A stretch of 64,000 bases of DNA from positions 70,833 through 134,832 of the forward strand of contig JBDIVN010000009.1 in the NCBI GenBank assembly GCA_039794365.1, given 5' to 3'. Positions 26,001 to 49,156 of the stretch are shown here, piece by piece (the first letter of the stretch is position 1; each line of letters starts with the position of its first letter). Source of the DNA: Vampirovibrionales bacterium. GTDB lineage: Bacteria; Cyanobacteriota; Vampirovibrionia; Vampirovibrionales; Vampirovibrionaceae. The notes below the pieces were generated by a model. It searched no databases. It was given only the letters and a program-made list of their open reading frames with translations, and was not told the origin of the DNA. The position numbers and the translations under genes were made by a program.

Positions 26001-29000
26001 CCGCTCAGGGTGATACTGCCATCCAGGGCGGTAATATCCACCTGACCGGTTATCGCCGTCAGGGAACCGCCGATGGAGATATTCCCGTCGACCGTATCAA
26101 TGTCCATGGAGGTGCCAAACGCGTTGGATGTCAGGTTGCCGTCAAGGGTAATATCGCTGGTGGCGCCACCGGTACTGATGGTGATGTTGTCCGTAATGTT
26201 GGCGCTGGACGTGTTGGTGAAGGTAATACCGCTGTTGGCTCCGGTGGTTGATACGGTGAGATCGGCGTCGTTGATGTTCAGGTCGCCGGTAATGGTGATG
26301 GGGCTGTCGTTTTGTGCGGTGGAGAGGGTGCCGGTGCCGTTGAGGGAGTTGGCGGTGATGCTGTCCACGGTGATGCCGCTGAAGGTTCCGGCGGTAGAAA
26401 TGTTCAGGGTAGACCCGTTGGCGGTGATGGTTCCGGCGCTGTGGGTAATGGCGCTGTCGGTCAGCCCGGCGGTGGTGATGGTGACATTTTGCCCGGCCTT
26501 TTGGCTGGTGAAATTGCCGGCGTAGGTGATGCTGCTCTGGTTGCCTGCCGTGGAAATAGTGGGGGAATTGATGTTGGTGGTGATGTCGGCGGTGATGGAA
26601 ATGTCGCTGTCCGCGCCCGCCGTGGAAATGGTAAAGCCTTCACCGCCGCCGTCCACGCCGCCGCCGCGATCCACCTGGTCGCCGAAAATCAGCGGATTGG
26701 CGGTACTGATGGTAATATTGCTGCCCAACCCGTCCGTTGTGATGAGAATGGCATCGGTGACGGTGATGGCCGAGCCGGTAATGCTGATGCCGGCATTATC
26801 GCCGAAGGTTCGCAGTCTCAGATCATCGCCCAGGGTCACATCCGCCGTGGCGGTAAAGATGATGTCGCTGTTGTTGCCGTTGGTGGTCAGGCTCAGATCG
26901 CGGTCTGAAACAACCGTTCCCGTGACGGTGATGTCGTTGTCAATTCCGTTGGTAGTGAAGAACAGGTTTCCGAGGTCGGGGTTGGTTACCGTGCCCGTAA
27001 TATCGATGCGGCCGTCCTGGGTTTCAAACTGCGTGAAGTTTGCACTGCTGCCCGTGAAGTTTCCATCCACGAAGATATGACTGTTCGGGCCGTCGGTGCT
27101 GGTCAGCGAGAGGGCCGTAATACCGCTGGCCGTGTAATCCGAGGTATTGGCAAAGGTAATGTCGCTGTCGGCGCCTGCTGTATTGATTGCGTAGTTTCGG
27201 CCCACATCAACCCTACCGGCAAGCGTAATCCCGCTATTATCACCGGTTGTCGTCAAACTCAGGTCACGGGCGGGAGCAATATCGCTGCCCGCCGCCAGGG
27301 TAATGCCGCTGTTCAGGCCGGTGGTTGAGACGGTGAAATCCTGATCCCCAATATTAACCGTGCCGGTAATGGTGATAGCGCTGTTATCCTGTCCGGTGGA
27401 GAGGGTACCGGTCCCGTTGAGGGAACTGGCGGTGATACTGTCCACGGTGATGCCGCTGAAGGTTCCGGCGGTAGAAATGTTCAAGGTGGCTCCGTTGACG
27501 CTGATGGTTCCGGCGCTGTGGGTAATGGCGCTGTCGGTCAGCCCGGCGGTGGTGATGGTGACATTTTGCCCGGCTTTCTGGCTGGTGAAATTGCCGGCGT
27601 AGGTGATGCTGCTCTGGTTGCCCGTCGTGGAGATGGTGGGGGAATTGATGTTGGTGGTGATGTCGGCGGTGATGGAGATGTCGCTGTCTACGCCCGCCGT
27701 GGAAATGGTAAAGCCTTCACCGCCGCCGTCCACGCCGCCGCCGCGATCCACCTGGTCGCCGAAAATCAGCGGATTGGCGGTACTGATGGTAATATTGCTG
27801 CCCAACCCGTCCGTTGTGATGAGAATGGCATCGGTGACGGTGATGGCTGAGTCGGTAATGCTGATGCCGGCATTATCGCCGAAGGTTCGCAGTCTCAGAT
27901 CATCGCCCAGGGTCACGTCTGCTGCGGCGGTAAAGATGATATCGCTGTCGTTAGCGTTGGTGGTCAGGTTCAGATCGCGGGCGGAGAAGACTGTCCCATT
28001 GATGGTGATGTCATTATCCACCCCGTTGGTGGTCATCAGCATGTTGCCGCCGGGAGCGTCGGTTCGAACGGTGCCGTTGACGGTGATGTTTCCATCCTGG
28101 GTGGTGAGATCCATTGCCGTGCCGAAACGATCCGCCTGAAGGAATCCGTCGATGATTATGTTGCTGCCTGCGCCGCTGGTGTCCCAGTCCACCAGGTTGT
28201 CGATGTGGGCAAACGCCCCGGCATTGAAGAGGATGCTGCTGTTATCTCCGGCGGTATTGACCACGAAGCTGCTGGGAGTGCTGACGGTGCCCGTAAAGGT
28301 AATATTGCTGTTATCGGCAACCGTGGTGATGGGATTCAGCGTGGTGCCCACGGTCAGGTCGTCGAGGGTGATGCCGTTGTTGGTTCCGGCGCCGGTGGTC
28401 TGGACCGTCAGGATATCAGCGGTGATGGTGGTGCCGTCCGCCTGGCTGATAAAGCTGTCGTTAAGGCCATTGGTAATAATGGAAGCCGTTCCGGTGACGG
28501 TCAGATCTCCCAGGATATCGATACTACCCCCGGCCAGCAGATCGAATCCGCCGCCGGAGACGGAGGCGGCGAGATCCACGTCGTTGAGTTCGATGATATT
28601 GACGTCACCCGTCCCCGTGTTGGTGACGGTGAGCACCCCGGCGTCCGTCTGGATGGGGTTGGCGACGGTACCCATGTTGCCGGAGAGATCCGTGGTCAGG
28701 TTCACCGTCGGTCCGGTGATCCGTCCGGACTGCCAGGTGATTTCCCCTTCGCGCATGGCGGTCAGGTCAATAATGCCACCGGTGGAGGTGATATTGGCGT
28801 TGAGGTCAATGGACTCCCAATCGGCGGGGTTGATGGTTCCATCGGCATCCGCGTTGGAAAGCAGGGTAATATTGCCGGTGGTGGAAGAAATATCCCCGTT
28901 CACCTTGATCCAGGCCAGGGAATTCAGGGTGATGTCTCCGGCGCCGCCGACGATGCTGCCGGTATCGTCAATCCAGGTCATATTCACGGTCATGGTCTTG

Positions 29001-32000
29001 TCGCCGAGGGTGAGGGTTTGTCCGGCAGCATCAAAACGACCACTGTTGCCGAAGTCCAGGTTGTAGGCTCCGGCCCCGGCGCCGGAAACGTCCAGGTTCC
29101 CGATGATGTCGATATCTCCCCCACCCCGGATCAGGAGGGTATCGGCGGTAATCCGGGCGAGTTCCTGCGAGGAGATGTCGAGAATGCCTGCCGTATCGGC
29201 GTTGTCAACGGCGCCGCCAATCTGTGTCGTTTTGTTGCTGGCGCGGCGCAGCGTCACATTGCCTGTCCCGGCGTTAACGGACTGGTTGATATCCATCTGG
29301 GAGCCTTCCAGGTGGATGTTGCCCCCATTGGATGTCAGCACGTTGTTGATGACGAGGTTGCCGGCATTACTGCCATTATTGTCGGCAATCAGAGTCATGT
29401 TGGGACCATTTGTCGTAATCGTGCCGTTCGTGGTGAAGTTACCGTCGGTGGCCATGCTGATGCCACCGGGGCCGCTGGTGTTGATGGTCGTGTTGGTGTG
29501 GTTGATCTCGATATAGTTTGTGGCGGTCCAGTCGATGGCTCCGGCGTCGATGTCGGCAAATTCGGTAGTCGTGTAGCCAATCTGGATATAGTCGGTCATA
29601 TTGGCCGTAAACGTTCCGCCGCCTAAATTGATGGTGCTGAATGAGTTGCCGCCACCGTTGCCGTCAATGTGGATAGCGTCCCCTGTGGCGGTCCAGCTGC
29701 CGCCGTTGGTAAGGATGCTGGACCCTGCGCCGGTGTCAAACCGTCCGGTCCCGCTGCTGTTGGTATCGGTGACGGAGGTTATTGCGCCGCCGTTGGTATT
29801 GATGGCGCCGTTCATGAAGATGTTGTTGCCGGACATGAACAGGGCACCGCCCCCGGTGTTGACTGTTCCAGTCGAACCGATGGTGAGGTTGCCGTTGCCG
29901 TCGTCGTTGAAATCACCGTCCAGGGTCAGGGTGGCGTTGTTGAGGCTGATGCTGCCGCCAATGACGGCATGACGCCTTGCGTTCAGTGTGGTTCCGTTGC
30001 TGTTGGTGATGCTCCCCGTGCTGGACATAATGATTTCATCGGAGAAATCCGCCTGAATCAGTCCGGCGTTCTGGATAGTTCCGTTGAGAAACAGGTCATC
30101 ACCGCTCATGGTGATGTTGCCACCGCCAGTATCCACAATGCTTCCGTTTGCGATGGTTACATCCGAGACGCCGCTGATTTCGCGGGAGTTCAGGGTGAGT
30201 GAGCCTCCTGAGGTGGTAATGGTGCCGCTGTTGATATTGAGATATTCGCCCTCGATCAGGAGGCTGCCGCCGCCGGTTGCGATGGAGGCGTTAATACCGA
30301 CATCGCCGCTGGCATCCAGGTCTCCGTCGGCATTCAGGATGAGGTTCCGGCCTGCGGTATCCAGCGAGCCGTTGATAAGGATGTTGTTCGCCGACTCCAG
30401 TTTCAGATCATAAACGCCGTTAAGGGTCAGATTCTCGTTGACCGAAACATCGCCCACAGCCCAGTAGGCTCCGATGATCACATCGCCCGCATTCAGCCGG
30501 TCCAGTTCCGCCTTGGAAATATCCATGACCCCCGGTCCATCGGCATTATCCACCGACCCTCCTACCGTGATGTCGTTTCCCCATCCTGTCAGCCAGATGC
30601 TCCTTGCCGGACCGACATCAATTGTGTTGTTAATGTCAATAGCGAGGGAATCAAGATAGACATTGGCGTTGCTGGTGATGGCGCCGTCGATGGTGACGGA
30701 GATGTCGCTGGCCAGATCGAACCATCCGCCGATGTTGGGACCGATGGTAAAGTCCTCGTTGACCGTAATGGCTCCGCTTCCGCCAACGTTGACCGCTCCG
30801 ATGTTGACGGATACGTTCGCCCCGCTGTTAATGCGGTTGATTTCCGCCTGGGAGATGTCGAGCACGGCGGCGGAATCGGCATTATCGACAGAACCGCCGA
30901 CATGGATGTCCTTGCTGGCGAAGGAGCCAATGTAAAGCCACGTCTGCACGCCCGGATCGCCGATATCCACGGTGGCGTTGATGTCGATCTGGGAACCCAT
31001 GAGCTGGATTTCGCCACCGTTGGAAGACACGGTATCGTTGATGGTGAGGGTGCCGCTGTTGTTACCGTCGGCGTCGGCCCAGAGGCGGATGGCGGCGTTG
31101 TTGGTGGTGAGCGGGGCGTTGATGGTGATGTCGTTGTTGGCCTCAAGGGTCAGGGAGACGTTGGCGTTGCCGGTGGCAACGGAGGTATCGAAGGCGCTGT
31201 TGACGATGATGTCGTTCGTGGCCTGGAGCCAGATGTCGCCGAAGCCGTCAAACGAGCCGCCGGCTTGCGGGTCATAAGTCTCCAGGGCACCGCCGTCGGC
31301 AAAGGCAACGTCCACGCAGCCCACACAGTCAGCAGGGTCCGGTGAGCCTCCGGCGTTGTCGATGATGATATCCACCGGGTCAATGAGGATGCGTCCTCTC
31401 TCGTAGCCTTCGGTCGCATGGCCCCGTGCCTGTCCTTGAAAATACACGGTTTCCAGGCCGCTCACCTCGACGAAGCCTGCATTACCCGAAACGGAGCCGC
31501 CGCTGACGTCAATCACCGCGCCGTTGCGGAAGTAGGTGTTCTTGTCGGACCAGATCAGCATCTCGCCCGCATTGCTGTTTTCGCCCGCGCCTTTGACGGA
31601 GGTGTAGCTGTCGCTGGTGAGCGCGGTCCCCTGGGTGGAACTCAGTTCCACGTAGCCGCCGGTGCCGCCCTCGTAGCCTTCGGAGAGAATGTTTCCCGAC
31701 TGGATGAGCCAGTCGGCGTGGAGGGAGACCAGTCCGCCGTCCGGATTGAGTTCTGAACCGCTGGCGTCCAGCGTCCCGCTGTTTTCGACGATGGCCTGCT
31801 GATCGGCGGAATGGCCGCGAAGGCGGATGACGCCGCCTTCCTCCGTGGCGGTGACGGCGCGGATGACGCCGTCGTTGTTGACCACGCGGCTGTAGAGGTT
31901 CTCGGCCAGCTCGGTCTGCAGCTCGATGGTTTTGGATTCAATGGTGCCGCTGTTGGAGATGGCGTGCTGAACCTCGTCCACCTTGGCCAGCAGGGCCTCG

Positions 32001-32782
32001 TCGATGATAACCTCGACAGCCTGGGTGTCCGAGACATTGACCCGGATCTTGTCTCCGGCGGCCAGGTGCACCGTGCCGTCCGGCACGAAGATGTTGCCGC
32101 TGTTCTCCACGGCGGAACCGGCCAGCACCACGTAGCCGCCGGGCATCGCCGAGATGCTCCCCTCGTTGATGACGGCGGCGGGGTTGTCGCCGTTGCGGCT
32201 GAAGGCCCAGTTGCCGCTCAGGTAGTCCTGGTCGGCGATGTTAAGGCTGGAGGCGATGAAACTCCCCGTGTTGATATTGGCGGTGGCGCCGATGTTGATT
32301 CCGGCGTTGTTGGACAGCAGGACCGTTCCGTTGCTGTTGAGGTTCCCCATGATGCTGGAGGGTCCGCCGCCGATGACGCGGTTCAGGATGCTGGCGGTGC
32401 TGTTGAGCAGGAAGAAGTTGACCGTTTCTCCCCCGGCGATGTTGAAGGACTGGTAGTTGACGATGGCCTGGCTGGAACTGGAGTGGACGTTCAGCGTACT
32501 GCCGTCCACCTGGAACGTGACATCCCCCGACACGACCTCCCATCCAGCTGGCAACGCGAGGGCCTGCTGGACCAGCATCAGCAGCACCAGAACGAAGGCC
32601 AGCGCCGACTGCGCTCCCTGCCGGATGACCGTGCGGGCGTTCAGATTACTGAACAGGGCTGACAGATTCGGGAGGAAGTCATCCTCGTGGGTGGTGAACA
32701 GCCGAAATTTGCCGCCGGATAAGGTAAAAATCCGGTGGCAGTTTTTCCTGCCACGAATAATCAAGCTGTCTTGTCTGTCCAT
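20037..32782 (-). CDS. Giant filamentous-haemagglutinin-like (TpsA-type) adhesin with C-terminal YVTN beta-propeller, split by a 1-nt frameshift at about 25506 (4,248 aa if restored)
   Basis: Extended signal peptide ending ..QALA; haemagglutination-activity domain (ILNRVIGG, GNLNSNGTVLLSNNAG); G/T/N/D/I-rich beta-helix repeats; YVAN repeats; one added G joins ORFs 25445..32782 and 20037..25382. Confidence 0.88.
25490..27920 (-). repeat. Three large internal repeats in the adhesin gene
   Basis: GATCCACCTGGTC anchor at 27745, 26668 and 25681 (spacing 1077 and 987 nt); first two copies nearly identical over about 500 nt. Confidence 0.9.
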
Positions 32783-33540: not shown

Positions 33541-33647
33541 TTTTGATACCCCCTGCTTGAAAACTCTAGCTGTTGATTTCCCGATTTTGGGCAGCGTTAA
33601 ACAGCGAAACCGAAAAAGGTGTATTCCATTGGGCCGGATGCGTTAGA

Positions 33648-36600
33648 ATGGAGGCTGCGAAGGCTTGTAACCAGCATAATGAGAATCAGGCGACCGTGTT
33701 GACCCACCAGGATATTTTCAGACAAATCCGTGATCAGTTGCCGCGTGTGCGGGAGCAGGATATTCCGGTGACCCTGGAAACGCTCCCGGCGGTGAAACGC
33801 GAGGGCAATGGCGCCGTCGCCACGAAAACCGTCCGAAAGGACTCTGCGCTGGCTGTGGATGTCCGGCTTCTGGGGGCCATGCTGGGCCGGGTCATCTATG
33901 ATCACAAGGGCGAGGCCTTTTTCCGGTTTATCGAGAACCTGAGGTTCACCGCGAAACGCACCCGTGAAAAGGACGGCTCCGTCAACCGGCAGGCGTTCGG
34001 GGCCATCGTCCGTGAATCCCTGGACCATCTGTCCCCTGAGGAGCGTATCCAGTGGCTGGATGACGCCGCCGTTGCCTTCCAGCTTTTCCTGACCCTGACC
34101 GGCATTGCCGAAGGCTACCATCAAAGCCTGCAGTTCATCCAGGACGAGAAGGGGGTCTATTCCGCCGTGCGGGAACTCCAGGCGGGAGGGGAACCTCTGG
34201 ATGACCTGACCGAGGTAATCAACCGGATGCAGGTGCGGCTGGTGGCCACGGCCCACCCGACAAAAATTCTGCGGCACATCATTCTGCGGCATCATCGGGG
34301 GATTTTCCACCTGTTGAGCCAGCTTCACCGTTGCGGGCTGTCCGAGGCATCCCAGCAGGAAATTCTCGATGAGCTGATGGAGAAGATCGAAATGCTGTGG
34401 GCGTCCGAATTCAGCCGTTGGCAGACCCCCACCGTCATCGACGAGGCCCGCCACGTTCTCAGCTATTTTCGTCATACCCTTTACCATACGGTGGTCCGGC
34501 TGGACAGTCGCCTGCACCGTTCGCTGCAGTCGGGTTACGGCGAATGCCCGCTGTCGCGCATCTCTGAAAAACCCCTGATTACCTTCGGAAGCTGGGTTGG
34601 CAGCGACATGGACGGGAACCCGAACGTCAATGCCGACTCGTTCAGCGAGATCCTGGGCCTGCAATTCCAGACCATCCTGCAACTCTATGCCGATGAGCTG
34701 GTGGAAATGGCGCCCAAGATTACCCATTCCGTCTATCGCTTCGAGCCGAGCGATGTGTTAAAAGCTTCTCTAACCCAGGATCTTGACGAAATGGTGGAGG
34801 CCGGTCTGCCTCTCAGGGACTTCAGGGCCGGAAGCCGGAGGGAACCCATCCGCGTCAAGCTTCTGCTGATGGCTGAGCGGCTTCAGCACACCCTTGCCTA
34901 TCCGCCTCTGACCCATGTAACGCCGGAACCGCTGTTTGTCTACCATAGCCCGAAAGAGCTTCTGGCGGATGTGCAGCTCATGATCGATTCCCTGACCGGT
35001 GCGGGGTACGAGCGTTCCGTTCACCTGTGGCTGGAAACCTTTGCCCGGAAAGTCCGGATCTTCGGCTTCCACCTGGCGGCGATGGACCTGCGCGAGGATG
35101 CCGAAAACATCAGCGCCGCCGCGGACATTATCCTGGCCGTTTCCCATGGCCGGGATGAGGACATGGACGAGGCGGATTCGGTATCCGCCCTGACGGCGGC
35201 CATCCTGTCGCCCACCGTCGTCCAGCCGAGAAAGCTGGATTTCATGAAAGACAAGGCCCTGAAGCTCTTTGGAGAGCAGAAAGGCTGGTGTACCCAGCGT
35301 CTGCTCGATATGTTGATGGTGGTGCGCCAGGCCCACGAATTTCTGGGTCCGGAGTCCTCGAAAAACCTGATTATTTCCATGACCTCCTCCCTGCAGGACA
35401 TGCTTTCCGCCCTGCTGCTGCTGAAAACGCGGGGTCTGTTTTTCCAGGACGTGGATGAGGCCTGCGTCAGCGACATGGACATTGTGCCCCTGTTCGAGAC
35501 CATCGATGCGCTGGACCGGGCGGCGGCCATCATGGACGAGGCGTTTTCCAACGAAGCCTACCGTCTTCACCTGCAATGCCGTGGCAATCAGCAGCTTATT
35601 CTGCTGGGATACAGTGACAGCAATAAAGACGGCGGCTATTTCACCAGCAACTGGTTGCTGTACAAGTGCCAGCAGGAGCTGATGGCCGTGGGTGAAAAGC
35701 ATGGCGTCGCCGTCCGGTTCTTTCATGGCCGGGGCGGTAACATTGGCCGTGGGGGTGCGCCCACCCACCGGGCGGTACAGGCCCTGCCACCGGGTAGTGC
35801 CCGGTTCGGGCAGGATCTTACCGAGCAAGGCGAGGTCCTTTCGCGCTATTACAACATTGCGGAAATCGCCCAGGCTCACCTGGAAAACATCTATTCCGCC
35901 CTCCTCAAGAAGAACGTCTGCCCGGAGACCCCGGCACGGGACGCCTGGGTTGAGGCGGCGGAATGGCTGTCCGCCCATTCGTTCCGGAAATATCGGGCCT
36001 TCATTGAGCATGAGCATTTTATCGAATACTTTGAGAACGTGACGCCCCACGAGGTGGAGTTGGTAAAAATCGGCTCGCGTCCCTCCAAGCGGCGGCAGGC
36101 GTCGTCGATTCGGGATCTGCGGGCCATTCCGTGGGTTTTCCGCTGGTTCCAATCCCGGCAGATTGTTCCCGGCTGGTACGGTATGGGTACGGCGCTGGAG
36201 CGTTTTCTGGATGAGAACCCTGGCAACGAGGCGCTGCTTAAGGACATGTTCGGGCGCTGGCCGTTTTTCGGCAGCCTCATCAACAACTGCGAAATTACCC
36301 TCTCCCAGACGGATCTCGGCATCGCCCGCCATTATATGGGGCTGGCGGAGGACCAGGCGTCTGCCTCGGCCATTCTGGCGGATATTGAGGCTGAGTTTGA
36401 CCTGACCGTACGGATGGTCCGGAAAATCACCGGCGCTCCCCTGCTCAGCAAGCCGGAAGACGAACCGCTGGCCCATTCTATTTTCCTTAAATCCCCGTAT
36501 CTCGACCCCCTGAACTTCATTCAGCTCTACCTGCTGGAAGATTACCGGGATCTGTTGGAACGCGAGCGCACCGCCGACGAGCAGATCACCCTGGAAAACT

Positions 36601-36662
36601 ACCAGCGTGCCATCGTCTCCAGCATTGAGGGCATCGCCATTGGCCTGGGTACATCGGGTTAA
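33648..36662 (+). CDS. ppc: Phosphoenolpyruvate carboxylase
   Basis: TAHPT, GYSDSNKDGG, FHGRGGNIGRGG, TEQGE, LRAIPWVF; start uncertain. Confidence 0.93.
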   Translation: MEAAKACNQHNENQATVLTHQDIFRQIRDQLPRVREQDIPVTLETLPAVKREGNGAVATKTVRKDSALAVDVRLLGAMLGRVIYDHKGEAFFRFIENLRFTAKRTREKDGSVNRQAFGAIVRESLDHLSPEERIQWLDDAAVAFQLFLTLTGIAEGYHQSLQFIQDEKGVYSAVRELQAGGEPLDDLTEVINRMQVRLVATAHPTKILRHIILRHHRGIFHLLSQLHRCGLSEASQQEILDELMEKIEMLWASEFSRWQTPTVIDEARHVLSYFRHTLYHTVVRLDSRLHRSLQSGYGECPLSRISEKPLITFGSWVGSDMDGNPNVNADSFSEILGLQFQTILQLYADELVEMAPKITHSVYRFEPSDVLKASLTQDLDEMVEAGLPLRDFRAGSRREPIRVKLLLMAERLQHTLAYPPLTHVTPEPLFVYHSPKELLADVQLMIDSLTGAGYERSVHLWLETFARKVRIFGFHLAAMDLREDAENISAAADIILAVSHGRDEDMDEADSVSALTAAILSPTVVQPRKLDFMKDKALKLFGEQKGWCTQRLLDMLMVVRQAHEFLGPESSKNLIISMTSSLQDMLSALLLLKTRGLFFQDVDEACVSDMDIVPLFETIDALDRAAAIMDEAFSNEAYRLHLQCRGNQQLILLGYSDSNKDGGYFTSNWLLYKCQQELMAVGEKHGVAVRFFHGRGGNIGRGGAPTHRAVQALPPGSARFGQDLTEQGEVLSRYYNIAEIAQAHLENIYSALLKKNVCPETPARDAWVEAAEWLSAHSFRKYRAFIEHEHFIEYFENVTPHEVELVKIGSRPSKRRQASSIRDLRAIPWVFRWFQSRQIVPGWYGMGTALERFLDENPGNEALLKDMFGRWPFFGSLINNCEITLSQTDLGIARHYMGLAEDQASASAILADIEAEFDLTVRMVRKITGAPLLSKPEDEPLAHSIFLKSPYLDPLNFIQLYLLEDYRDLLERERTADEQITLENYQRAIVSSIEGIAIGLGTSG

Positions 36663-36664: not shown

Positions 36665-37579
36665 TTATTTCCGTGGGGTCTTCTGTTGTGGCTGGGGCTG
36701 TTGGTTGGCTTGCTGCCATGCAAGGTTGAGCAGGGCCGAGAGGGTTTCCTGCGCCCTGGTCATCCGGGACAGCAAGATAGGTCGGAACGCCGTTCGCAGG
36801 GCCGTGCTGCAGGCATAGGGATTGGCGGCTGCCCAGGGATTGGCAAGGCATGTCTGCTGGGCCTGCACGATATCGTACACGGCCAGGTGGCTTTCCAGAA
36901 CCTGCCGTTTCAGGAACGGCTCCAGGGTTTCGGCGGTCAATTCGGGCAGAGGGCTTGTCTTTGGAGGGTTTGCCAGTTGTGCCAGGTCGTTGGGCGTAAG
37001 CACGGCCTGTTCCAGGAAGGCATGGATGCCGGATTGGGGAAATGCGGGATGAATGGGCCAGTCATGATAAGTCGTGCTGTGCAGGGGCATGAACAGATCG
37101 CCCACATAGTGGGAGAGCCGTCCGATGGCATCGCTGAGGGCCAGTTGGAGCGTTTCTTTCTGGCCTGCGTCCTGGGTTTCGATGACCTGCCGCATCAGGC
37201 GCCGGGTATCGCGATAGGCCGTCAGAGTGGCGGTGACGACTGTTTCTCCCTGGGGAAGAGCAGGGCCGTTGCCCGGCGGGTTCTGCCACAGGCCGGCCAG
37301 CCACTGCCGGGCGTTGGGGTTGAAGTGCCGGAAAATGAAGTCCAGGGGCAGGGGGCCGTTGCCGGAAAATCGGTTGACCGGAAGCTCAAGGTTGATGAAG
37401 TGGTGCGGGCCTTTGTGATAGATGTCCTGGCTGTCGTCGGAGGCGGCGATGAACGGGCGGCTTTCCTGTAGAAACGGTTTCAGGGGCGTCTGGGGCAGGC
37501 GGTTGAAGGCGCCTTCGCGAATGGCGCCATGTCCGCGGCTGTCCCAGCCGAATCTCGGAGTGGTGTCGGAAATGCCCAA
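36665..37579 (-). CDS. S1/P1 nuclease / Zn-dependent phospholipase C fold protein with short non-Sec leader
   Basis: W-D-S-R-G-H start motif, D..HHFIN, HYVGDLFMPLH, IHAFLE; probable TTG start at 37579 behind CAGGGG (ORF is open to GTG 37705). Confidence 0.8.
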   Translation of the reverse strand: MGISDTTPRFGWDSRGHGAIREGAFNRLPQTPLKPFLQESRPFIAASDDSQDIYHKGPHHFINLELPVNRFSGNGPLPLDFIFRHFNPNARQWLAGLWQNPPGNGPALPQGETVVTATLTAYRDTRRLMRQVIETQDAGQKETLQLALSDAIGRLSHYVGDLFMPLHSTTYHDWPIHPAFPQSGIHAFLEQAVLTPNDLAQLANPPKTSPLPELTAETLEPFLKRQVLESHLAVYDIVQAQQTCLANPWAAANPYACSTALRTAFRPILLSRMTRAQETLSALLNLAWQQANQQPQPQQKTPRK

Positions 37580-37799
37580 AACGGTTGTCCCCTGGTGGTG
37601 TGGTTTGATCCGGCCATGCTGGCGGATCTCTCTCTGATCACTGTCCTCTTTAAAACCGCTGAAGCGGGTTTTGTGACAGTTTTTTTCAGGACTTGCCGGT
37701 TGCACAATCGGACGGTTCGTGGCATTTTTAGGGGACCGGGCAATTCTTCATCCGGTTTTGATTTTTTCAGTGTGATAACCGTTTTGAAAGTCCCCTTCC

Positions 37800-37951: not shown

Positions 37952-37969
37952 GTAATCAGGAGTTTGCCA

Positions 37970-38845
37970 ATGTCCGACAAGTTGAAAATGGTGATCCCCA
38001 AAGGCCGTCTGCAGGAGAAGGTCGAGGCCCTGCTGGCCCGCGTGGGCATCGAACTGATGTTCAGCACGCGCAGCTACCGGCCGGTTTGCTCCGACCCGGA
38101 CGTGGAGGTCAAGCTGGTCAAACCCCAGAACATCCCCGCCCTCATCAGTCTGGGCCGTCACGACTGCGGCTTTACCGGCCTGGACTGGATCATCGAGCAG
38201 GACTTTGCCGACGACCCAAACCTGGTGGAGTTGGTGGATCTCGGCTACAACAAGGTCCGCATCGTTGCCGCCGTACCGGAAGATCTGGCTGAGAACGACG
38301 CTTATAAAACCCGCAAGAAGCTGGTCATCGCCTCCGAGTATCACAAGCTGGCGGCGGACTACGTGAAAAAGCAGGGCCTGGACGCCATCCTCATCAAGAC
38401 CTACGGTGCCACGGAAGCCCTGCCGCCGGAAGACGCGGACATGATCATCGACAACACCTCCACCGGCTCCACGCTGGTGATGAACCGCCTGGTCATCGTG
38501 GACGAGCTGCTGGCCTCCACCACCCGTTTCATCAGCAGCCGCCAGGCCATGGATGATGCCAAAAAGGGCGACAAACTGCGGAAGATCCGGATGCTGATGG
38601 AAAGCGTCCGCATGGCGGATAAAAAGGTCCTGCTGGAGATGAATGTGGCGGCGGACAAGTTCGAGCAACTGGTCAGCCACCTGCCCAGCATGCGCTCCCC
38701 CACCGTCTCGCCCCTCTACCAGGAGAAAGGCTATGCCGTCAAGGTGGCCGTGCCGTCCTCCGAGGTGCCGCTGCTCATACCGGAACTGGTAAAATTGGGC
38801 GCAACGGATATTCTTGAATACAAGCTGGAGAAGATTGTTCCATGA
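37970..38845 (+). CDS. hisG: ATP phosphoribosyltransferase, long form
   Basis: IPKGRL, GFTGLDW, YGATEA, DMIIDNTSTGSTL; C-terminal regulatory domain (PSMRSPTVSPL). Confidence 0.95.
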   Translation: MSDKLKMVIPKGRLQEKVEALLARVGIELMFSTRSYRPVCSDPDVEVKLVKPQNIPALISLGRHDCGFTGLDWIIEQDFADDPNLVELVDLGYNKVRIVAAVPEDLAENDAYKTRKKLVIASEYHKLAADYVKKQGLDAILIKTYGATEALPPEDADMIIDNTSTGSTLVMNRLVIVDELLASTTRFISSRQAMDDAKKGDKLRKIRMLMESVRMADKKVLLEMNVAADKFEQLVSHLPSMRSPTVSPLYQEKGYAVKVAVPSSEVPLLIPELVKLGATDILEYKLEKIVP

Positions 38846-40554
38846 GTTTGGAGACCGTCATGACCGGAAAAATCCTGCCCAAAAAGGCGATCCAGAACAT
38901 GGAAGCCTACTCCGCGCCGCTGGAGGGCCGCCGCAATAAAATACGGCTGGATTTCAACGAGAATACCACCGGCTTCCCTGACGCCTACGAAGGACTTCCG
39001 GCGGAACTCATCAACGCTTACCCGGAGTACGACGCCTTTCTGGAGAAACTGGCGAAGCACTTCGGCGTGAAGCCGGAAAACCTGATGCTGACCAACGGCA
39101 GCGCCGAGGCCCTGTTCCTCATCCCGTTCACCTTCATCGAGCCGGACGAGGATGTCGCCGTCGTCTCCACGCCCACGTTCCCCATCATCCCCCACAGCCT
39201 GCGCCTCGTTCAGGCAAAACTGCGGGAAGTCACCGCCAACCCGGATCTCACCTATAACGTGGACGGACTGGAACAGGCCCTAGCCGAAGGCGCCAAGCTC
39301 TGCATCATCGCCACGCCGGACAACCCTACCGGCGCTGTACTGGATGCCGACGTCATCCTGCGCTGGTGCGACCGGTTTCCTGACACGCTCTTCGTCATTG
39401 ACGAGGCCTACTACGAGTTTGACGGTCGCACGGTGCTGCCGGAGGTGACCAAACGCCATAACCTGCTGGTGACCCGCAGCTTCTCCAAGGCGTGGTCGCT
39501 GGCGTCACTGCGCCTGGGGGTGATTATCGGCCCGGAGGAGTTGATGAAATACATTGGCCGGGCAAAATCGCCCTACAGTGTCAACGCCGTCGCCGTGAAG
39601 CTGGCCTCAAACCTGCTGGATCGCCATGACGAGGTTCAAGCGCAGGCGCAGGCCATCATGGCCCGCAAGCAGCGGATGATCGAGGAGGTCCGAAAGCGTG
39701 GTTATGACGTGGTGGAAGGCGCGGGCAACTTCTTCCTGCTCAAGGCGGGGTTCGATTCCAAGACTCTCAGCCAGTTCTGCTACGAGCGTGGCGTGTTATT
39801 GCGGGATCGTTCCGGCCTGCCCCACATGTGGGGGACCATCCGGGTGAATGCCGGGACGGATGACGAGATCGAGCGCTTCCTTGAATGCCTTGACGAGTTC
39901 CGTCAGAGCCGGGCGCTGATTTTCGACCTCGATGACACCCTGGTGGATACATCCCAAAGCTACGACGCCACGATTCTCCAGTTGCTGAAGGATCACACCG
40001 GCAAGGACGTTCCCCGCAAGGAACTCAAGGCCCTGCGGGCCGAGGGCGGATTCAACGACGACTGGGACGCCACCCGTGAATTGCTCCGCCGCCATGGGAT
40101 CGAGATGACCCGTGAGCAGGTGGAGGCCGAGGGCAAACGAATTTATCTGGGCATCGCCCTGGATACGGAAGACTGGCTGATGCCGGCGGCTCTCTTCGAG
40201 AAGCTGAAACACCGCTACCGGCTGATGGTGGTGACGGGCCGTCCCCGCGATGAGTACGGTCCCGTCTGGCAGTCGCGGCTCGATCCGCTGGTGGAGTGCT
40301 GCGTGTGCCAGGACGACTACGACGGCCTGCCCCGAAAACCGGCCCCGGATGTGCTGAAACGCACCATGCGGGAGACGGGCATCACCGGCGGCATCTACGT
40401 CGGCAATTCCGTGGATGATATGCGCGCCGCAAAGGGTGCGGGCCTCAAGGCCATCGGCGTGACCTCCACCCACGAAGCCCAATTGCTCTCCGAGGCCGGG
40501 GCGGATACGATTATCGAGTCCATGAACGACTTACGAAAGGTGCTGATGCTATGA
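38842..40554 (+). CDS. hisC: Histidinol-phosphate aminotransferase fused to a C-terminal HAD-family phosphatase
   Basis: LDFNEN, PDNPTG, DEAYYEF, RSFSKAWSLASLRLG (PLP Lys); then FDLDDTLVD, GGFNDDW, VVTGR, KPAP, YVGNSVDD. Confidence 0.9.
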   Translation: MSLETVMTGKILPKKAIQNMEAYSAPLEGRRNKIRLDFNENTTGFPDAYEGLPAELINAYPEYDAFLEKLAKHFGVKPENLMLTNGSAEALFLIPFTFIEPDEDVAVVSTPTFPIIPHSLRLVQAKLREVTANPDLTYNVDGLEQALAEGAKLCIIATPDNPTGAVLDADVILRWCDRFPDTLFVIDEAYYEFDGRTVLPEVTKRHNLLVTRSFSKAWSLASLRLGVIIGPEELMKYIGRAKSPYSVNAVAVKLASNLLDRHDEVQAQAQAIMARKQRMIEEVRKRGYDVVEGAGNFFLLKAGFDSKTLSQFCYERGVLLRDRSGLPHMWGTIRVNAGTDDEIERFLECLDEFRQSRALIFDLDDTLVDTSQSYDATILQLLKDHTGKDVPRKELKALRAEGGFNDDWDATRELLRRHGIEMTREQVEAEGKRIYLGIALDTEDWLMPAALFEKLKHRYRLMVVTGRPRDEYGPVWQSRLDPLVECCVCQDDYDGLPRKPAPDVLKRTMRETGITGGIYVGNSVDDMRAAKGAGLKAIGVTSTHEAQLLSEAGADTIIESMNDLRKVLML

Positions 40555-41165
40555 GCGCGACGTCCGTGAACAACCGCCAGAGCCGCAAGGCAACCGTGGA
40601 ACGGGAATCGAAGGAAACGCAGATCCGGGTGTCCATCAATATCGATGACTCGTCCGAGCTGTCCATCGAAACCGGGCTGCCCTTCTTCAACCACATGCTC
40701 GAAGCCTTCGCCGTCCACGGCCGCTTCGGGCTGGTGATTGATGCCAAGGGCGACGTGGAGGTGGACCCGCACCACCTGATTGAGGACACCGGCATCGTCC
40801 TCGGCCAGGCTATCGCCAAGGCCCTGGACGGCTACAAGGGCATTGCCCGTGCGGGGTGCTTCGCCTTTCCCATGGATGGCACCCTCTCCGTCACCGCCGT
40901 GGATCTCTGTGGCCGGGCGAACCTGGTCTGGAAGGTCAAGTTCGGCCCGTTCACCGTGGGCAGCCTGGACCCGAATCTCTTCCGGGAGTTTTACAAGGGT
41001 CTCGTCGATGGCATGAAGGGCACCCTGCACGTCCATGTGCCGGTGCAGGACAACGATCACCACGTGGTGGAATCCATCTTCAAGGCCTTCGCCCGATCCC
41101 TGCGCCAGGCGGCGGAACCCGTCGATGCGGCGGTGCTCAGCACCAAAGGCATGCTCGACACATGA
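40551..41165 (+). CDS. hisB: Imidazoleglycerol-phosphate dehydratase (monofunctional)
   Basis: TGLPFFNHML, DPHHLIED, NDHHVVESIFKA, STKG. Confidence 0.96.
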   Translation: MSATSVNNRQSRKATVERESKETQIRVSINIDDSSELSIETGLPFFNHMLEAFAVHGRFGLVIDAKGDVEVDPHHLIEDTGIVLGQAIAKALDGYKGIARAGCFAFPMDGTLSVTAVDLCGRANLVWKVKFGPFTVGSLDPNLFREFYKGLVDGMKGTLHVHVPVQDNDHHVVESIFKAFARSLRQAAEPVDAAVLSTKGMLDT

Positions 41166-41764
41166 TCGAGTTGATCGACTACGGCGGCGGCAACGTCGGC
41201 AGCGTCATCCGCTGCCTGCACCGGCTGGAGATTCCCTTTCGCATGGCCGGTCCCGACAGTTTGCCGTCGGGTGATCGCCCCATGATCCTCCCCGGCGTCG
41301 GCGCTTTTGGCTCAGTTATGCGAAGACTTTCTGAGGGGCGCGAGCTTTCCAAGGGTGGTCTGGCCGATCGCATCAAGGCACTTGTCGCCGAAGGGACGCC
41401 CTACCTGGGCATTTGCGTCGGCTTGCAGGTGCTGCTTGATGAAAGTACCGAGAATCCCGGCGTGCCGGGGCTGGGGCTGATCCCCGGCAAGGTCGTCAAG
41501 TTCACCGGCGGCAAGATCCCCCAGATTGGCTGGAATTCTATTCACGCCCCCAATGGAAAACAGGCTCCCGACGGGTATGTCTATTTCGTGAACTCATACT
41601 ATGCCGCCCCGGCGGACCCTTCCGTGGTTCTCTATGAAGCGAATTACAACGGTCCTTTCTGTGCCGCCATCCAGAAGGACAACATCACCGCCTTCCAGTT
41701 TCACCCGGAAAAAAGCGGCCACTTCGGCCATGAACTGTTTCGGAGGTGGTTCGATGCTGTGTAG
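41162..41764 (+). CDS. hisH: Imidazole glycerol phosphate synthase, glutaminase subunit
   Basis: [33 protein letters not shown]. Confidence 0.95.
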
Positions 41765-42515
41765 ACGGATCATCCCCTGCCTCGACGTGGCCGGTGGCCG
41801 GACGGTGAAGGGCATTAAATTTCAGAACCTGCGCGATATCGGCGATCCCGTCGCCCTGGCCGTGGTCTACCAGGAGCAGGGGGCCGATGAATTGCTGTTT
41901 CTGGACATCTCCGCCTCCCACGAGGGACGCGAAACCATGTTCCACGTCGTCGAGCAGGTGGCGGAAAGCCTGATGATTCCCTTTACCGTGGGTGGCGGGG
42001 TCTCTACGCTCGCCCATGTGAAAAAGCTGCTGAATTGCGGCGCAGACAAGGTTTCAGTCAACACCGCCGCCGTGTATAACCCGCAACTGATCAAAGAGAT
42101 CGCCGACGAATGCGGCTCACAGTGTTGTGTGCTGGCCATCGATGCCCGGCGTCGTTCGGACGGAAACGGCTGGGAGGTATTGACCCACGGCGGACGGAAA
42201 ATTGCCAGGGAAGACGCGCTGGCCTGGGCGAAAGAGGCCGTTGAATTGGGTGCTGGTGAAATCTTGCTGACCTCCTGGGATCGCGACGGCACCCATGAGG
42301 GCTTCGATCTCGAACTCACCCGCGCCTTTGCCGATGCTCTCCCTGTGCCGGTGATCGCCTCCGGCGGGGCCAGCGGAGCAGGAAGTTTTGTGGATGTATT
42401 TCAGCAGGGCCATGCCGATGCGGCGCTGGCGGCGAGTATTTTCCACGACGGCGAGTGGACCGTTGAGGGTCTGAAAGAAGTCATTAAGCAGGAAGGAATC
42501 CCGGTTCGACTATGA
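41754..42515 (+). CDS. hisF: Imidazole glycerol phosphate synthase, cyclase subunit
   Basis: [44 protein letters not shown]. Confidence 0.96.
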
Positions 42516-43750
42516 TTATCCCCAGTATCGACCTGATAGACGGCAAGGCGGTGCAGTTGCGCCAGGGCAAGGAGCACGTGCTGACCCACGACACGGACCC
42601 GGTGGAACTGGCCCGCGAATTCAACCGTTACGGTGAGATCGGTGTCATCGATCTCGACGCGGCGATGGGCAAGGGCGACAACCTGGAACTCGTCAAGCGC
42701 ATCTGCCGGGTGGCCAGCGTCCGGGCCGGGGGCGGGATTCGCACCAAGGAGCGAGCGAGCGAGCTGCTTCGCGCCGGGGCGGAGCGCATCATCATCGGCA
42801 CGTCCGCCACGCCGGAATTTCTTTCGCAGCTTCCAAAAGAGCGGGTCATGGTGGCCATCGACCACATGCAGGGCGAAGTCGTCGATCAGGGCTGGACCCG
42901 CGGCACCGGCGAGACGTTTCTGGACCGGGCCAACGCGCTGAAAGACTACTGCGGCTCCTTCCTCTGCACCTTCGTGGCCGAGGAAGGCACGATGAAGGGC
43001 ATGAATATCCCCGAAGTTCTGGCGATCCAAAAGCAGATCGACAAGCCTCTCACCGTGGCGGGCGGCATTGCCCGGACGGAGGAGGTCATCGAGCTGTCGA
43101 AGCACGGCCTCGACGTTCAGGTCGGTATGGCCCTCTATACCGGCAATCTCGATCCGGTGGACGCCGTGGTCGGCAGCCTGGACTTTGACAAGCAGGGCGG
43201 GTTGATTCCCACCATCGTGCAGGACGAGGCGGACCAGGTGCTGATGCTGGCCTACAGCTCGAAGGAATCCCTTCAGCAGGCCCTGAAAACCGGAAAAGGC
43301 ATCTATTTCAGCCGATCCCGCAACGAATTGTGGGAGAAGGGCAAGACCTCCGGCAACATGCAGGAGCTGCTTTCGTGCCGGGTGGATTGCGACCGGGACA
43401 CGATTTTATTCACGGTCAGCCAGTCGGGACCTGCCTGTCATACGGAAGCCTACAGCTGTTTCGGCAGCGGCCTGCGTACCCGCCGCTTCTCGTTGCCGGT
43501 CCTCTTTGATATTCTGGACGAACGCCGCCGGAATCTGCCCGAAGGCTCCTACTCGGCCAAGCTCTTCAAAGACCGTGCTCTGCTCAACAGCAAGGTGATG
43601 GAAGAGGCGCAGGAAGCCATCGAGGCGGAGAGATTCGACGACGTGGTGTGGGAAATCTCCGACGCCATCTACTTCCTTAGCGCGCTGGCCGTCAGCCAGG
43701 GGGTGCGGTGGACGGATATCGAAGCCGAACTGGGAGGCCGTCACAAATGA
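42512..43750 (+). CDS. hisA: HisA-HisI-HisE triple fusion
   Basis: [14 protein letters not shown] / RAGGGIR (HisA); [30 protein letters not shown] (HisI); [17 protein letters not shown] (HisE). Confidence 0.9.
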
Positions 43751-45012
43751 TTCCCGTCTACACCGGCAAAAAAGCCCGCGAACTGCTGATGACCCTCGCC
43801 GAATTCACTCCCTCGGCGGATCACACCGTCGAGCAGGCCGTCCGCCAAATTATTTCCAACGTCCGTGACGGCGGCGACGGCGCCCTGCGCGAACTGGCCC
43901 GGCGCTTCGGCGATCCGGTGCCGGACAACTTCCTGATGTCCGCGCTTGAGATTGAAGAGGCTGTTCGCCGTGTTCCCGAAGAAACCCGGAAGGTCTTGAA
44001 CCAGGCGGCGGAAAATATTCGATTCTTCGCCCAGTCCGTCAAGGATGGGATTTCACCGGTCTATCTGGATCGCGGCGGCTTTCTCACCGGGCTGGACTTT
44101 CGTCCGGTGGAGCGGGTGGCCTGTTATGTCCCCGGCGGACGTTATCCCCTCCCTTCAACGGCCCTGATGACGGCCATCACTGCCCAGGTAGCGGGGGTGC
44201 AGGATATCTGCATCGCCTCCCCCTCGCTGCGGGATGAGATTGTTTATGCCGGAACCCTGGCTGGTGTGAAAAAATTCTACCGCCTTGGCGGTGCCCAGGC
44301 GGTGGCGGCACTGGCGACAGGAACGGAATCCGTTGGGAAAGTCGATATGATCGTCGGCCCCGGCAACGCCTATGTTACCGAAGCCAAACGCCAGTTGCAG
44401 GGCATTATCGGCATCGATATGCTGGCGGGGCCCAGCGAAGTCGGGATCATTGCCGACGAGGGCGCCAACCCGAAGTGGGTGGCGCTGGATCTGCTGGCCC
44501 AGGCGGAACATGATCCCGATGCCCGCGCCTATCTTTTTACCGATAGCGATGTTTTGGCTGGACGGGTGGCCGCCGAGGTCGAAACCGCCCTGACCAAACT
44601 CAGTCTGCCGGACTTCATGCGCCGGTCCCTGGAGGCCAGTGGAATTTTCGTTCTATCCTCCCTGAACGAATGCGTGGAAGCTTGTAACTACCTGGCCCCG
44701 GAGCACTTGGAGCTTCAGGTTGCGGACCCGATGCCCCTCAAGCTTAGGCTGCATCATTACGGTGCCCTGTTCATGGGTTACGAAACCACGGTGCCCCATG
44801 GCGACTATATGGCCGGGCCGAACCATACCCTGCCGACGGGACGCACGGCACGCTTTTCCGGCAGCCTCACGCCGCTCACGTTCCTGCGCCCCCAAAGCTG
44901 GATCGAGGTGAAACCCGGCGACCGCACCCTGCCGGACGCCACCCGGAAGTTCGCCGAACTCGAGGGTCTCACCGCCCACGCCGCTGCCGCCAGTGTTCGG
45001 GCAAATATATAA
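43747..45012 (+). CDS. hisD: Histidinol dehydrogenase
   Basis: YVPGGRYP, GGAQAVAALA, GPGNAYV, IDMLAGPSE, LLAQAEHD, APEHLEL, GPNHTLPT. Confidence 0.96.
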   Translation: MIPVYTGKKARELLMTLAEFTPSADHTVEQAVRQIISNVRDGGDGALRELARRFGDPVPDNFLMSALEIEEAVRRVPEETRKVLNQAAENIRFFAQSVKDGISPVYLDRGGFLTGLDFRPVERVACYVPGGRYPLPSTALMTAITAQVAGVQDICIASPSLRDEIVYAGTLAGVKKFYRLGGAQAVAALATGTESVGKVDMIVGPGNAYVTEAKRQLQGIIGIDMLAGPSEVGIIADEGANPKWVALDLLAQAEHDPDARAYLFTDSDVLAGRVAAEVETALTKLSLPDFMRRSLEASGIFVLSSLNECVEACNYLAPEHLELQVADPMPLKLRLHHYGALFMGYETTVPHGDYMAGPNHTLPTGRTARFSGSLTPLTFLRPQSWIEVKPGDRTLPDATRKFAELEGLTAHAAAASVRANI

Positions 45013-45030
45013 GCAAATGCAATTTTTTGC

Positions 45031-45060
45031 TTGACGGTGTTTTAATAGATCAAGTAGATT
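45031..45060 (+). promoter_or_regulatory. Putative sigma70 promoter of the trp operon
   Basis: TTGACG-N18-TAGATT in the AT-rich gap after hisD. Confidence 0.45.
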
Positions 45061-45093
45061 TGAACATTATCAAAACGAGAATCTGTATTTCAA

Positions 45094-45183
45094 ATGACGT
45101 ACTTCCCGAACGCAATCAACAACAACTGGCGGGCCTGGTGGCATTCTGACCGACCTGCCGGTGGGCGCTGTTTGGGCGCGTAA
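45094..45183 (+). CDS. trpL: Trp operon leader peptide MTYFPNAINNNWRAWWHSDRPAGGRCLGA
   Basis: 29-codon ORF with W-R-A-W-W upstream of a terminator/antiterminator pair. Confidence 0.88.
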   Translation: MTYFPNAINNNWRAWWHSDRPAGGRCLGA

Positions 45184-45213
45184 AACGTTCGGGATTCAAC
45201 TACCGTAAGTTTC

Positions 45214-45250
45214 AAAACCGCAGGTCTGTCACAAGACACCTGCGGTTTTT
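45214..45250 (+). terminator. Trp attenuator terminator
   Basis: AAAACCGCAGGT...ACCTGCGGTTTTT; 45152-45162 (GACCTGCCGGT) can pair with 45217-45226 as the antiterminator. Confidence 0.88.
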
Positions 45251-45286
45251 CATTTGCAGACTTTTCAAACAGAAGGAATCCAGACC

Positions 45287-46132
45287 ATGACGACCTATCG
45301 CTACCAGAAAGAAAACTCCGCCCACCGGACCACTGTTCAAGTGGGCAATGCCGCTTTCGGTGGACGGACTGTGCCGGTAATTGCCGGACCTTGCGCCGTG
45401 GAATCCTTGGAACAGTTGGAGGAAACGGCGAAGGCCCTGAAGAAGGCGGGCATCGCCTGCATCCGTGCCGGGGCCTTTAAGCCCCGCACGTCGCCCTATG
45501 CCTTCCAGGGCATGGGCGAAGAGGGCCTGAAGCTGCTGGATCAAATCCGTTCCAGATACGGGCTGGCCGTTGTCTCTGAGGTGATGAGCGTTGAGCAGAT
45601 CGCCATTGCCGAACCCTACGTCGATTGCTTCCAGGTGGGGTCGCGCAATATGCAGAATTTTGAGCTGCTCAAGGCGCTGGGGCGAACCAACAAGCCGGTG
45701 CTGCTGAAGCGGGGTCTCAGCGCTACCCTCGATGAGTTCCTGATGGCGGCGGAATATATTATGGCCGAAGGCAACACGCAGGTGATTCTCTGCGAGCGGG
45801 GTATCCGCAGCTTCGATCCGGCCACGCGCAACGTGCTGGATCTGGCTGCCGTAGCGCTTTTAAAGGAAAAAACCCACCTTCCGGTCATCGTGGACCCCAG
45901 CCACGCCACCGGGCGGCGTTCCCTTGTCGGTCCGGCGTCGCTGGCGGCGGCGGCCATCGGGGCGGACGGGCTGATCATCGAGGCCCATCCCCAACCGGAA
46001 AAATCCGTGTCCGACGCGGATCAGGCCCTTTCCCTTGCCGAGCTGGCGGCCCTTGTTCCACAATTGGATGCGGTGACCGCCGCCATCGGGCGGACGGTTG
46101 CCGAAGTCCCCTCCTACAGGAAAACCGCCTGA
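45287..46132 (+). CDS. aroF: DAHP synthase, type I-beta, catalytic domain only
   Basis: IAGPCAVES, GAFKPRTSPYAFQG, GSRNMQNF, LKRG, LCERGIR, DPSHATG; no N-terminal ACT domain. Confidence 0.92.
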   Translation: MTTYRYQKENSAHRTTVQVGNAAFGGRTVPVIAGPCAVESLEQLEETAKALKKAGIACIRAGAFKPRTSPYAFQGMGEEGLKLLDQIRSRYGLAVVSEVMSVEQIAIAEPYVDCFQVGSRNMQNFELLKALGRTNKPVLLKRGLSATLDEFLMAAEYIMAEGNTQVILCERGIRSFDPATRNVLDLAAVALLKEKTHLPVIVDPSHATGRRSLVGPASLAAAAIGADGLIIEAHPQPEKSVSDADQALSLAELAALVPQLDAVTAAIGRTVAEVPSYRKTA

Positions 46133-49155: not shown

Positions 49156-49156
49156 G

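Follow-up and report, generated by a model that had tools for sequence, protein, structure and literature searches.

The 64,000-nucleotide stretch of DNA analysed here (hereafter the window, whose positions serve as coordinates throughout) carries on its minus strand a gene (36665..37579) for a putative zinc-dependent pro-enzyme of 304 amino acids, assigned to the phospholipase C (PLC)/P1-nuclease superfamily. Translation from the TTG codon at 37579-37577 to the TAA stop codon at 36667-36665 gives (M)GISDTTPRFG-WDSRGHGAIREGA. The leader M1-G11 (MGISDTTPRFG; 37547..37579) is polar and predicted to be disordered, and it lacks a hydrophobic core; its conserved end, P8-R9-F10-G11 (37547..37558), places F10 at 37552-37550 and G11 at 37549-37547. 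The next codon, TGG at 37546-37544, encodes Trp12, which is predicted to be the first residue of the mature chain (Trp1, with the mature start WDSRGH) and to ligate zinc through its main-chain nitrogen and oxygen, and we infer that the scissile bond is G11|W12 (a vertical bar marks a cut or presumed cut). A preliminary description of this DNA had given the same translation and the same position for the tryptophan, and re-reading of the sequence agrees with both, as it does with the remark that no methionine directly precedes Trp12.

All nine ligands of a trinuclear zinc site are present (W12, H17, D52, H60, H157, D161, H167, H186, and E190), and judged from the alignments the series W, H, D, H, H, D, H, H, E matches in full the ligands of P1 nuclease and Bacillus PC-PLC, in keeping with the earlier statement that the motifs HHFIN, HYVGDLFMPLH, and IHAFLE are intact. 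His17 (37529..37531; His6 in P1/S1 nuclease numbering) completes a W-x4-H start; Asp52 and His60 lie within DDSQDIYHKGPHH (37400..37426), D52 in the motif DDSQD (37426-37424) and H60 in HHFIN (37402-37400). The central motif HYVGDLFMPLH (37079..37111) supplies His157, Asp161, and His167, and IHAFLE (37010..37024) supplies the last pair, His186 and Glu190, in a PLC-like H-x3-E arrangement. In an alignment of 37 sequences F10, G11, H17, H60, H157, D161, P165, H167, W174, and H186 are invariant, and W12, D52, G153, and E190 are conserved in at least 90%; an alignment of 49 sequences reproduces this pattern.

An exhaustive HMMER search recovered 80 homologues, and word-index searches with the single protein or the family alignment gave almost no matches. 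The window protein falls below the Pfam gathering thresholds of both PF02265 (S1-P1_nuclease; 15.7-16 bits, E ~0.01, threshold 29.5) and PF00882 (Zn_dep_PLPC; 13.8-14.1 bits, E ~0.05, threshold 26.8), with only the central HYVGDLFMPLH stretch detected, and it has no match in NCBIfam, PADLOC, or a single-sequence search of the PDB. When members were scanned singly, weak matches to PF02265 appeared in 24 of 37 relatives (best 1.7e-7) and to PF00882 in 18 of 37 (best 4.8e-6). The AlphaFold2 model built from the family alignment (predicted local distance difference test score, pLDDT, 93.3; predicted template-modelling score, pTM, 0.92) has the all-alpha PLC/P1 fold, and the first 29 Foldseek matches in the PDB are all PC-PLC, alpha-toxin or S1/P1 nucleases (probability 0.89-1.00). 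Target-normalised template-modelling (TM) scores are 0.71-0.72 for Bacillus cereus PC-PLC and Listeria PlcB and only 0.45-0.57 for the nucleases AtBFN2, TBN1, and SmNuc1, with the clostridial alpha-toxins following. Among PDB sequences the family profile best matches B. cereus PLC (E 2.4e-4), aligning the central motif with H118/D122/H128 and the last pair with H142/E146.

The protein thus combines a P1-like start with a PLC-like end. It shares the superfamily fold, the trinuclear zinc cluster and the W-x4-H start with the S1/P1 nucleases (PF02265: P1, S1, TBN1, AtBFN2, and SmNuc1), from which it differs in the final ligand, Glu rather than Asp; the spacing from the tryptophan to the first histidine is 5, as in P1 nuclease, against 13 in PLC. 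With B. cereus PC-PLC and Listeria PlcB it shares the all-helical fold and the H-x3-E pair, at an identity of only about 12%. On sequence and model it is a member of the PLC/P1-nuclease superfamily whose substrate would be lipid or nucleic acid. The earlier label of an S1/P1-type enzyme is right as to superfamily and too specific beyond that, because fold and PDB profile lie nearer the Bacillus/Listeria PC-PLC while Pfam slightly favours S1/P1.

In this superfamily the identity of the first mature residue matters. In S1 nuclease, signal removal leaves a mature chain that starts at a tryptophan and binds zinc through its N-terminal main chain (PMC5201275). Listeria PC-PLC is synthesised in an inactive pro-form, whose propeptide of 26 residues abuts W1 and is removed by Mpl; a single residue added before W1 abolishes its activity, and W1F is the only tolerated substitution of W1 (PMC10576769). 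These studies uphold the earlier claim that Trp1 ligates zinc through its free N-terminus and that preceding residues inactivate the enzyme, and the tolerated W1F would fit the single family member with an FG-F junction (P0030).

The distant homologues point to the same residue. Eighteen of the 80 homologues carry a classical signal peptide, which ends immediately before the same tryptophan (AFA|WGETGH, VFA|WGHTGH, AHA|WGGEGH, ALA|WDARTH, AFG|WGSQGH, VFG|WGDEGH), and a separate genome scan found Sec-type junctions SWA|W (SWA|WGKRGH) and AFA|W in loci of Bdellovibrionales and Verrucomicrobiota metagenome-assembled genomes (MAGs). These Sec-dependent relatives (P0055-P0080 in part, and the MAG loci) are homologous to the window protein over the whole enzyme (E 1e-4 to 1e-10) and have the same ligands; they differ in carrying a hydrophobic signal peptide with a signal peptidase I (SPase I) site (AxA|W, AFG|W), where the leader of the window clade is polar and position -3 is R, K or Q. 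Because the Sec-type cleavage sites fall directly before the same tryptophan, the mature chain in this fold should begin there, and to judge from the aligned junctions the polar leader of the window clade has x-[R/K/Q]-F-G|W as its replacement for AxA|W. The comparison of homologues proposed in the preliminary description gave, as it had predicted, an SPase site before this tryptophan in the distant homologues and xFG|W in the lineage of the window.

The leader is a feature of a large clade. In 52 of the 80 homologues the leader has no hydrophobic core (a 9-residue Kyte-Doolittle maximum below 2), is 7-47 residues long and ends in F-G followed by W (F in one); apart from the 18 with signal peptides, the remaining 10 are N-terminally truncated. 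Counted over all 55 sequences with an FG junction, three of which are Sec-type, position -4 is P25/V12/I7/L6, position -3 R30/K10/Q8, position -2 F55, position -1 G55, position +1 W54/F1, and position +6 H53, which gives a leader-end consensus of [P/V/I/L]-[R/K/Q]-F-G with invariant F and G. The leader is otherwise not conserved: it is rich in P, S, T, and A, 2% acidic, and mostly of net charge +1 to +4. With an overall identity of only 20-39%, the sequences that carry the junction keep F-G without exception and W in 54 of 55; on the evidence of the alignment the FG|W pattern is a family feature far beyond chance. In the AlphaFold2 predictions disorder extends through the leaders to roughly the FG: pLDDT is below 50 for residues 1-4 of the window protein and averages 54 over its block 1-10, and in P0012 the blocks of a 33-residue leader average 37, 47, and 50, and then 80 and 97. 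Among genomes, the clade is best matched by a MAG of Vampirovibrionales (L079, JAJCZA010000023). A scan of genome contigs with the DNA pattern for HY[VI]GDLxMPLH returned mostly unrelated members of the wider superfamily (from Chlorobi, Desulfobacterota, and others), and of its matches only L079, a true family locus, and a few Sec-type relatives proved useful.

The public protein set starts the zinc-enzyme open reading frame (ORF; 36665..37705) at GTG 37705 rather than at the TTG, for a protein of 346 residues, and one might suspect an ordinary Sec or Tat substrate whose signal peptide is hidden by a mis-called start or a frameshift. The G+C content at third codon positions (GC3) is 0.55 in the 126 nucleotides from GTG 37705 to the TTG (37580..37705), a non-coding level, compared with 0.74 in the gene body and 0.70-0.82 in reference genes, and a Shine-Dalgarno-like AGGGGA (37593-37588) lies 8 nucleotides before TTG 37579; for these reasons the TTG is the likelier start, and the extension, in which there is also no hydrophobic segment, is probably untranslated. 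The choice leaves the leader argument unaffected, because neither the extension nor the other upstream frames hold a hydrophobic stretch. The leader, the in-frame extension at its longest (from GTG 37705, with a stop-to-stop limit of 37747) and the two remaining frames over 550 nucleotides upstream all lack such a segment, the 10-residue Kyte-Doolittle mean nowhere exceeding 1.24 and the Kyte-Doolittle window maximum in the leader being 0.5. In five loci (L079, L120, L121, L122, and L125) in-frame stop codons lie 15-25 codons before the Gly, and no signal peptide can therefore be hidden upstream there. With no twin-arginine motif either, and the pattern repeated in 52 independent sequences, a concealed signal peptide is most improbable and effectively refuted; the absence of a hydrophobic signal peptide noted in the preliminary description extends to 51 relatives.

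The known classes of leader were considered in turn. A Sec signal peptide cleaved by SPase I was rejected because there is no hydrophobic region (h-region) and position -3 is R, K or Q in 48 of 55 sequences, and a Tat signal because a single Arg directly precedes the Phe, with neither a twin-arginine motif nor an h-region. Double-glycine leaders (C39 peptidase/ABC exporter), prepilin-type leaders (G|F), and the leader of ribosomal protein L27 cut by Prp (..F-A|S) are likewise short and non-Sec, and a dedicated peptidase cuts each of them off behind a small residue. Double-glycine leaders need G, A or S at -2, where the FG sequences have Phe in 55 of 55, and this class was rejected. Past its cut, prepilin peptidase requires a hydrophobic segment and Glu5; a prepilin-type (class III) leader was rejected because WDSRGH and the first helix of the enzyme follow the Gly, with no hydrophobic segment. 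The lipoprotein class was rejected for want of a defining feature. The L27/Prp site also sets Phe next to a small residue, and Prp substrates are ribosomal and phage proteins; to our knowledge none of the double-glycine, prepilin, and Prp systems processes enzymes of this kind. A genuine Tat signal, SRREFLRG, occurs in a related genome (L128 15745).

A leader that is never removed would make F-G-W the structural N-terminus of an intracellular enzyme, with a disordered tail in front and a zinc site having one fewer or a different ligand. Such an arrangement would agree with the lack of a signal peptide and of a linked protease or transporter, with an F and a G more conserved than a cleavage site typically needs, and with the high AlphaFold2 confidence for residues 11-20, where the chain continues from the leader. 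It sits poorly with the retention of all nine ligands, Trp included, at the P1-like W-x4-H spacing, with Sec-type homologues whose chain starts at exactly this Trp, and with leaders of anything from 7 to 47 residues, predicted to be disordered; in Listeria PC-PLC one extra residue before W1 is enough to abolish activity (PMC10576769). We consider an uncleaved leader unlikely.

A related motif recurs near the N-termini of other proteins. The glycoamylase-family gene at 54039..55499 on the minus strand (PF10091) encodes the leader motif DRVSFSGK (55308..55331, minus strand) in the context PPDRVSFSGKTGALTPAE, immediately ahead of the first mature-domain helix. Its 16 closest orthologues (39-49% identity) have K-D-T-[V/I]-x-F-[S/T]-[G/A/S] at the same place, with F at the aligned position in 16 of 16 of these Melainabacteria-type proteins; one of them is an ACD_20 protein, from what we take to be a Melainabacteria genome, and the lineage assignment rests on that orthologue and on L079. 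Some orthologues have a second copy of the motif near the start (SPAFSGN, GIAFSGFK, TINFGN). In a MAFFT alignment the motif lies a few residues before the first domain helix and shares columns with the regions at which the signal peptides or lipoprotein signals of more distant homologues are cleaved (VFA|Q, AFA|Y, LHA|R, LAGC); on this evidence the same replacement has taken place at one position in two unrelated enzyme families. Six-frame translation of the window contains PRFG three times, two of them in real ORFs and both of these N-terminal; the second (NIRPRFG-YIEK; 62311..62322, minus strand) occupies residues 17-20 of a 189-residue ORF (61801..62370, minus strand). The M16 peptidase gene at 5629..8676 (plus strand) has DTVHFSGT (5773..5796, plus strand) in its N-terminal extension, upstream of a hydrophobic segment; translation of this motif depends on the start codon (M9, M44 or M63), and GC3 in 20-codon windows was too noisy to fix where the M16 and glycoamylase-family genes start. 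Weaker cases are LFAFGFND in the M16 orthologue of L131 (6769..9588), the PNLRFGKS of a SAM_HAT protein, and, in L125, PSISFCGSK followed by a hydrophobic segment. The preliminary description had spoken of an F(S)G leader whose processing site is fixed by G|W. Recurrence of a related motif at other N-termini supports the first part; transfer of the cut site to the FSG proteins is uncertain, because on the sequences VRFG|W can be aligned either to VSFS-G or to VSFSG| and the register between the proteins is ambiguous.

A UshA-like Metallophos plus 5'-nucleotidase-C protein in L128 (563..2539) begins with about 60 polar N/Q/S/P-rich residues (..SSQPDTFVSPS..) and has no signal peptide. Such proteins are periplasmic in other bacteria, and by its sequence this may be another signal-peptide replacement in a Melainabacteria-type genome.

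These findings bear on two further explanations. In the first, F-G would be a relic of an ancestral signal-peptide cleavage region (AFG|W, AFA|W) whose hydrophobic core was lost, leaving a cytoplasmic protein trimmed by unspecific or post-lysis proteolysis with no dedicated system. The junction is AFG|W or VFG|W in three Sec-type relatives and AFA|W in many, AFA being a common cleavage region, and enrichment of the loose motif was not significant in about 150 kb of related loci. A relic would hardly stay invariant in 52 sequences of 20-39% identity while the rest of the leader drifts freely, nor would it show a new conserved pattern, with -3 shifted to R/K/Q and -4 to P/V/I, or the same replacement at the same position in an independent family, and we regard this explanation as distinctly unlikely. 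In the second, the zymogen would process itself: its own metal-activated water would hydrolyse the G11-W12 bond, F10 anchoring the leader in the substrate pocket and G11 providing the backbone geometry. The invariance of just F and G would then need no partner gene or neighbouring protease, and the scissile bond necessarily adjoins the zinc ion that Trp1 ligates. There is, however, no precedent in the superfamily, since Listeria PC-PLC needs Mpl, and the related motifs on unrelated non-zinc proteins (the glycoamylase family and the 189-residue ORF) favour a common external machinery; self-processing thus appears very improbable.

The explanation that we favour on balance, with some reserve, is a zymogen whose leader blocks the contact between Trp1 and zinc until a dedicated peptidase cuts after the invariant Gly, the leader taking the place of a signal peptide in a lineage-specific route of export or sorting. 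A trinuclear-zinc phosphoesterase would carry, where a Sec signal peptide is otherwise found, a polar and disordered leader of 11 residues; with the leader in place it would be inactive, as are the PC-PLC zymogens of Listeria and Bacillus. In the Melainabacteria/Vampirovibrionales-like lineage [P/V/I]-[R/K/Q]-F-G would be both the recognition and the cleavage site of the peptidase. Removal would have to fall exactly at Gly11|Trp12, because the active site needs the free alpha-amino group and the carbonyl of Trp12, and it would couple export or sorting with activation. That the leader is probably a signal-peptide substitute is suggested by the related motif in the place of the cleavage region of an unrelated, exported-type enzyme family.

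The same genome encodes a large M16 peptidase of the MPP/SPP type with the motif HYAEH, predicted to be active. Organellar presequences are cut by M16 peptidases, and because the composition of the leader and the Arg at -3 recall such presequences, this enzyme may be a candidate for the processing peptidase, as a lead only. An S8 subtilase (60257..61744) and Prp-like cysteine proteases would be further candidates. A broader proposal is made tentatively, as possible rather than probable: Melainabacteria would have a hitherto undescribed class of leaders that are polar, positively charged and P/S/T-rich, lack a hydrophobic core, end in h-x-F-(S/T)-G/A, replace the Sec signal on several exported enzymes, and are removed by a dedicated peptidase.

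Several observations count against a dedicated leader and peptidase. We know of no leader peptidase with F-G| specificity, and R, K or Q at -3, as read from the junctions, rules out signal peptidase I. An aromatic residue at -2 is also common in the Sec-type relatives (AFA, AFG, VWA), so the F-G could owe part of its conservation to inheritance or structure and not to a new recognition code, and some leaders have only 7-8 residues, which is short for a targeting signal. The family loci contain unrelated housekeeping genes, with no linked protease or transporter and no conserved neighbourhood. Outside the family the loose motif was N-terminal in 4 cases and internal in 5 over the related loci, by a crude and noisy regular expression. 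In the M16 peptidases and in P0100 the motif stands upstream of a normal hydrophobic signal segment, where cleavage after it makes little sense, which suggests that recognition fits as well; one motif-bearing protein is a SAM_HAT enzyme (L125), normally cytoplasmic.

A propeptide that abuts Trp1 is already known from the PC-PLC of Listeria and Bacillus, and there removal of the N-terminal extension activates the enzyme. PC-PLC and PlcB have a Sec signal peptide as well as a propeptide, the latter cut by Mpl or other proteases at sites other than F-G, and the known S1/P1 nucleases are secreted by way of a signal peptide; the window clade has no signal peptide, a leader of as few as 7 residues, and an invariant F-G. 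What is new, as far as the sequences tell, is that no signal peptide is present, that F-G is invariant, that the unannotated clade is so large, and that another enzyme family shows a parallel replacement; no account of such a leader in Melainabacteria came up in literature searches. The clade makes a normally secreted enzyme, potentially destructive to membranes or nucleic acids, without a signal peptide and behind a conserved x-R-F-G leader, and it adds to the superfamily a large branch with no Pfam or NCBIfam assignment. Because superfamily chemistry fixes the first mature residue, the junction would read out the processing site from the sequence alone. If the FG|Trp1 junction does reveal the exact cut, a new leader and peptidase, and possibly a new route of export or sorting, would exist in the non-photosynthetic sister lineage of the cyanobacteria, which includes the algal predator Vampirovibrio. 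Secretome prediction for the mostly uncultured Melainabacteria would also improve, as current tools would score such proteins as cytoplasmic.

In the window the zinc-enzyme gene is convergent with ppc and divergent from hisG. The stop codons of ppc (33573..36662, plus strand) and of the zinc-enzyme gene (36665, minus strand) are separated by two bases, which therefore leave no room for separate terminators. The divergent intergenic region next to hisG holds a hairpin, AAAACCCGC-TTCA-GCGGTTTT (37672-37652), flanked by A/T runs; the in-frame TRFSGF (RFSGF) that it would encode is a spurious F(S)G motif and probably non-coding, given the GC3 of 0.55. A promoter/terminator scan of this region found nothing, nor did an Rfam scan of the window.

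Elsewhere, a convergent thioredoxin-reductase-like gene (Pyr_redox_2) stands beside the FG|W gene in two loci (L122 10001..11899 and L130 338..2234), and thioredoxin and AhpC-TSA genes adjoin the family gene in L131; thioredoxin-type genes are the only recurring neighbourhood seen for the family. Flp-type pilin genes (KKGQG|VIEYAG) occur at L122 12346..12537 and L123 15699..15896, with TadE, RcpC and secretin genes nearby, 2-8 kb from the family gene. These genomes carry Tad-type machinery, and its proximity to the FG|W gene is probably coincidental.

Further features of the window include two neighbouring ORFs on the plus strand (11650..13125 and 13236..14672) of about 480-490 residues, which are of Q/G/P/R-rich low complexity and have no Pfam match. 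On the minus strand a 2445-residue ORF (25445..32782) encodes a two-partner-secretion (TPS) exoprotein with a TPS secretion domain and a long N-terminal extension before the signal segment, and it adjoins a 1781-residue ORF (20037..25382) with a C-terminal beta-propeller (YNCE/lactonase/NHL-like). ARAGORN called a 101-nucleotide tRNA-Gly(GCC) antisense inside the latter (21948..22048, plus strand), probably a false positive, because Rfam has no tRNA there at the gathering threshold. As read from the translations, an apparent long run of his genes and then trp genes extends over 37964..52552 (plus strand), and within it the ORF at 38842..40554 (plus strand) encodes a 570-residue protein in which a class I/II aminotransferase (HisC-like) is fused to a HAD-family hydrolase.

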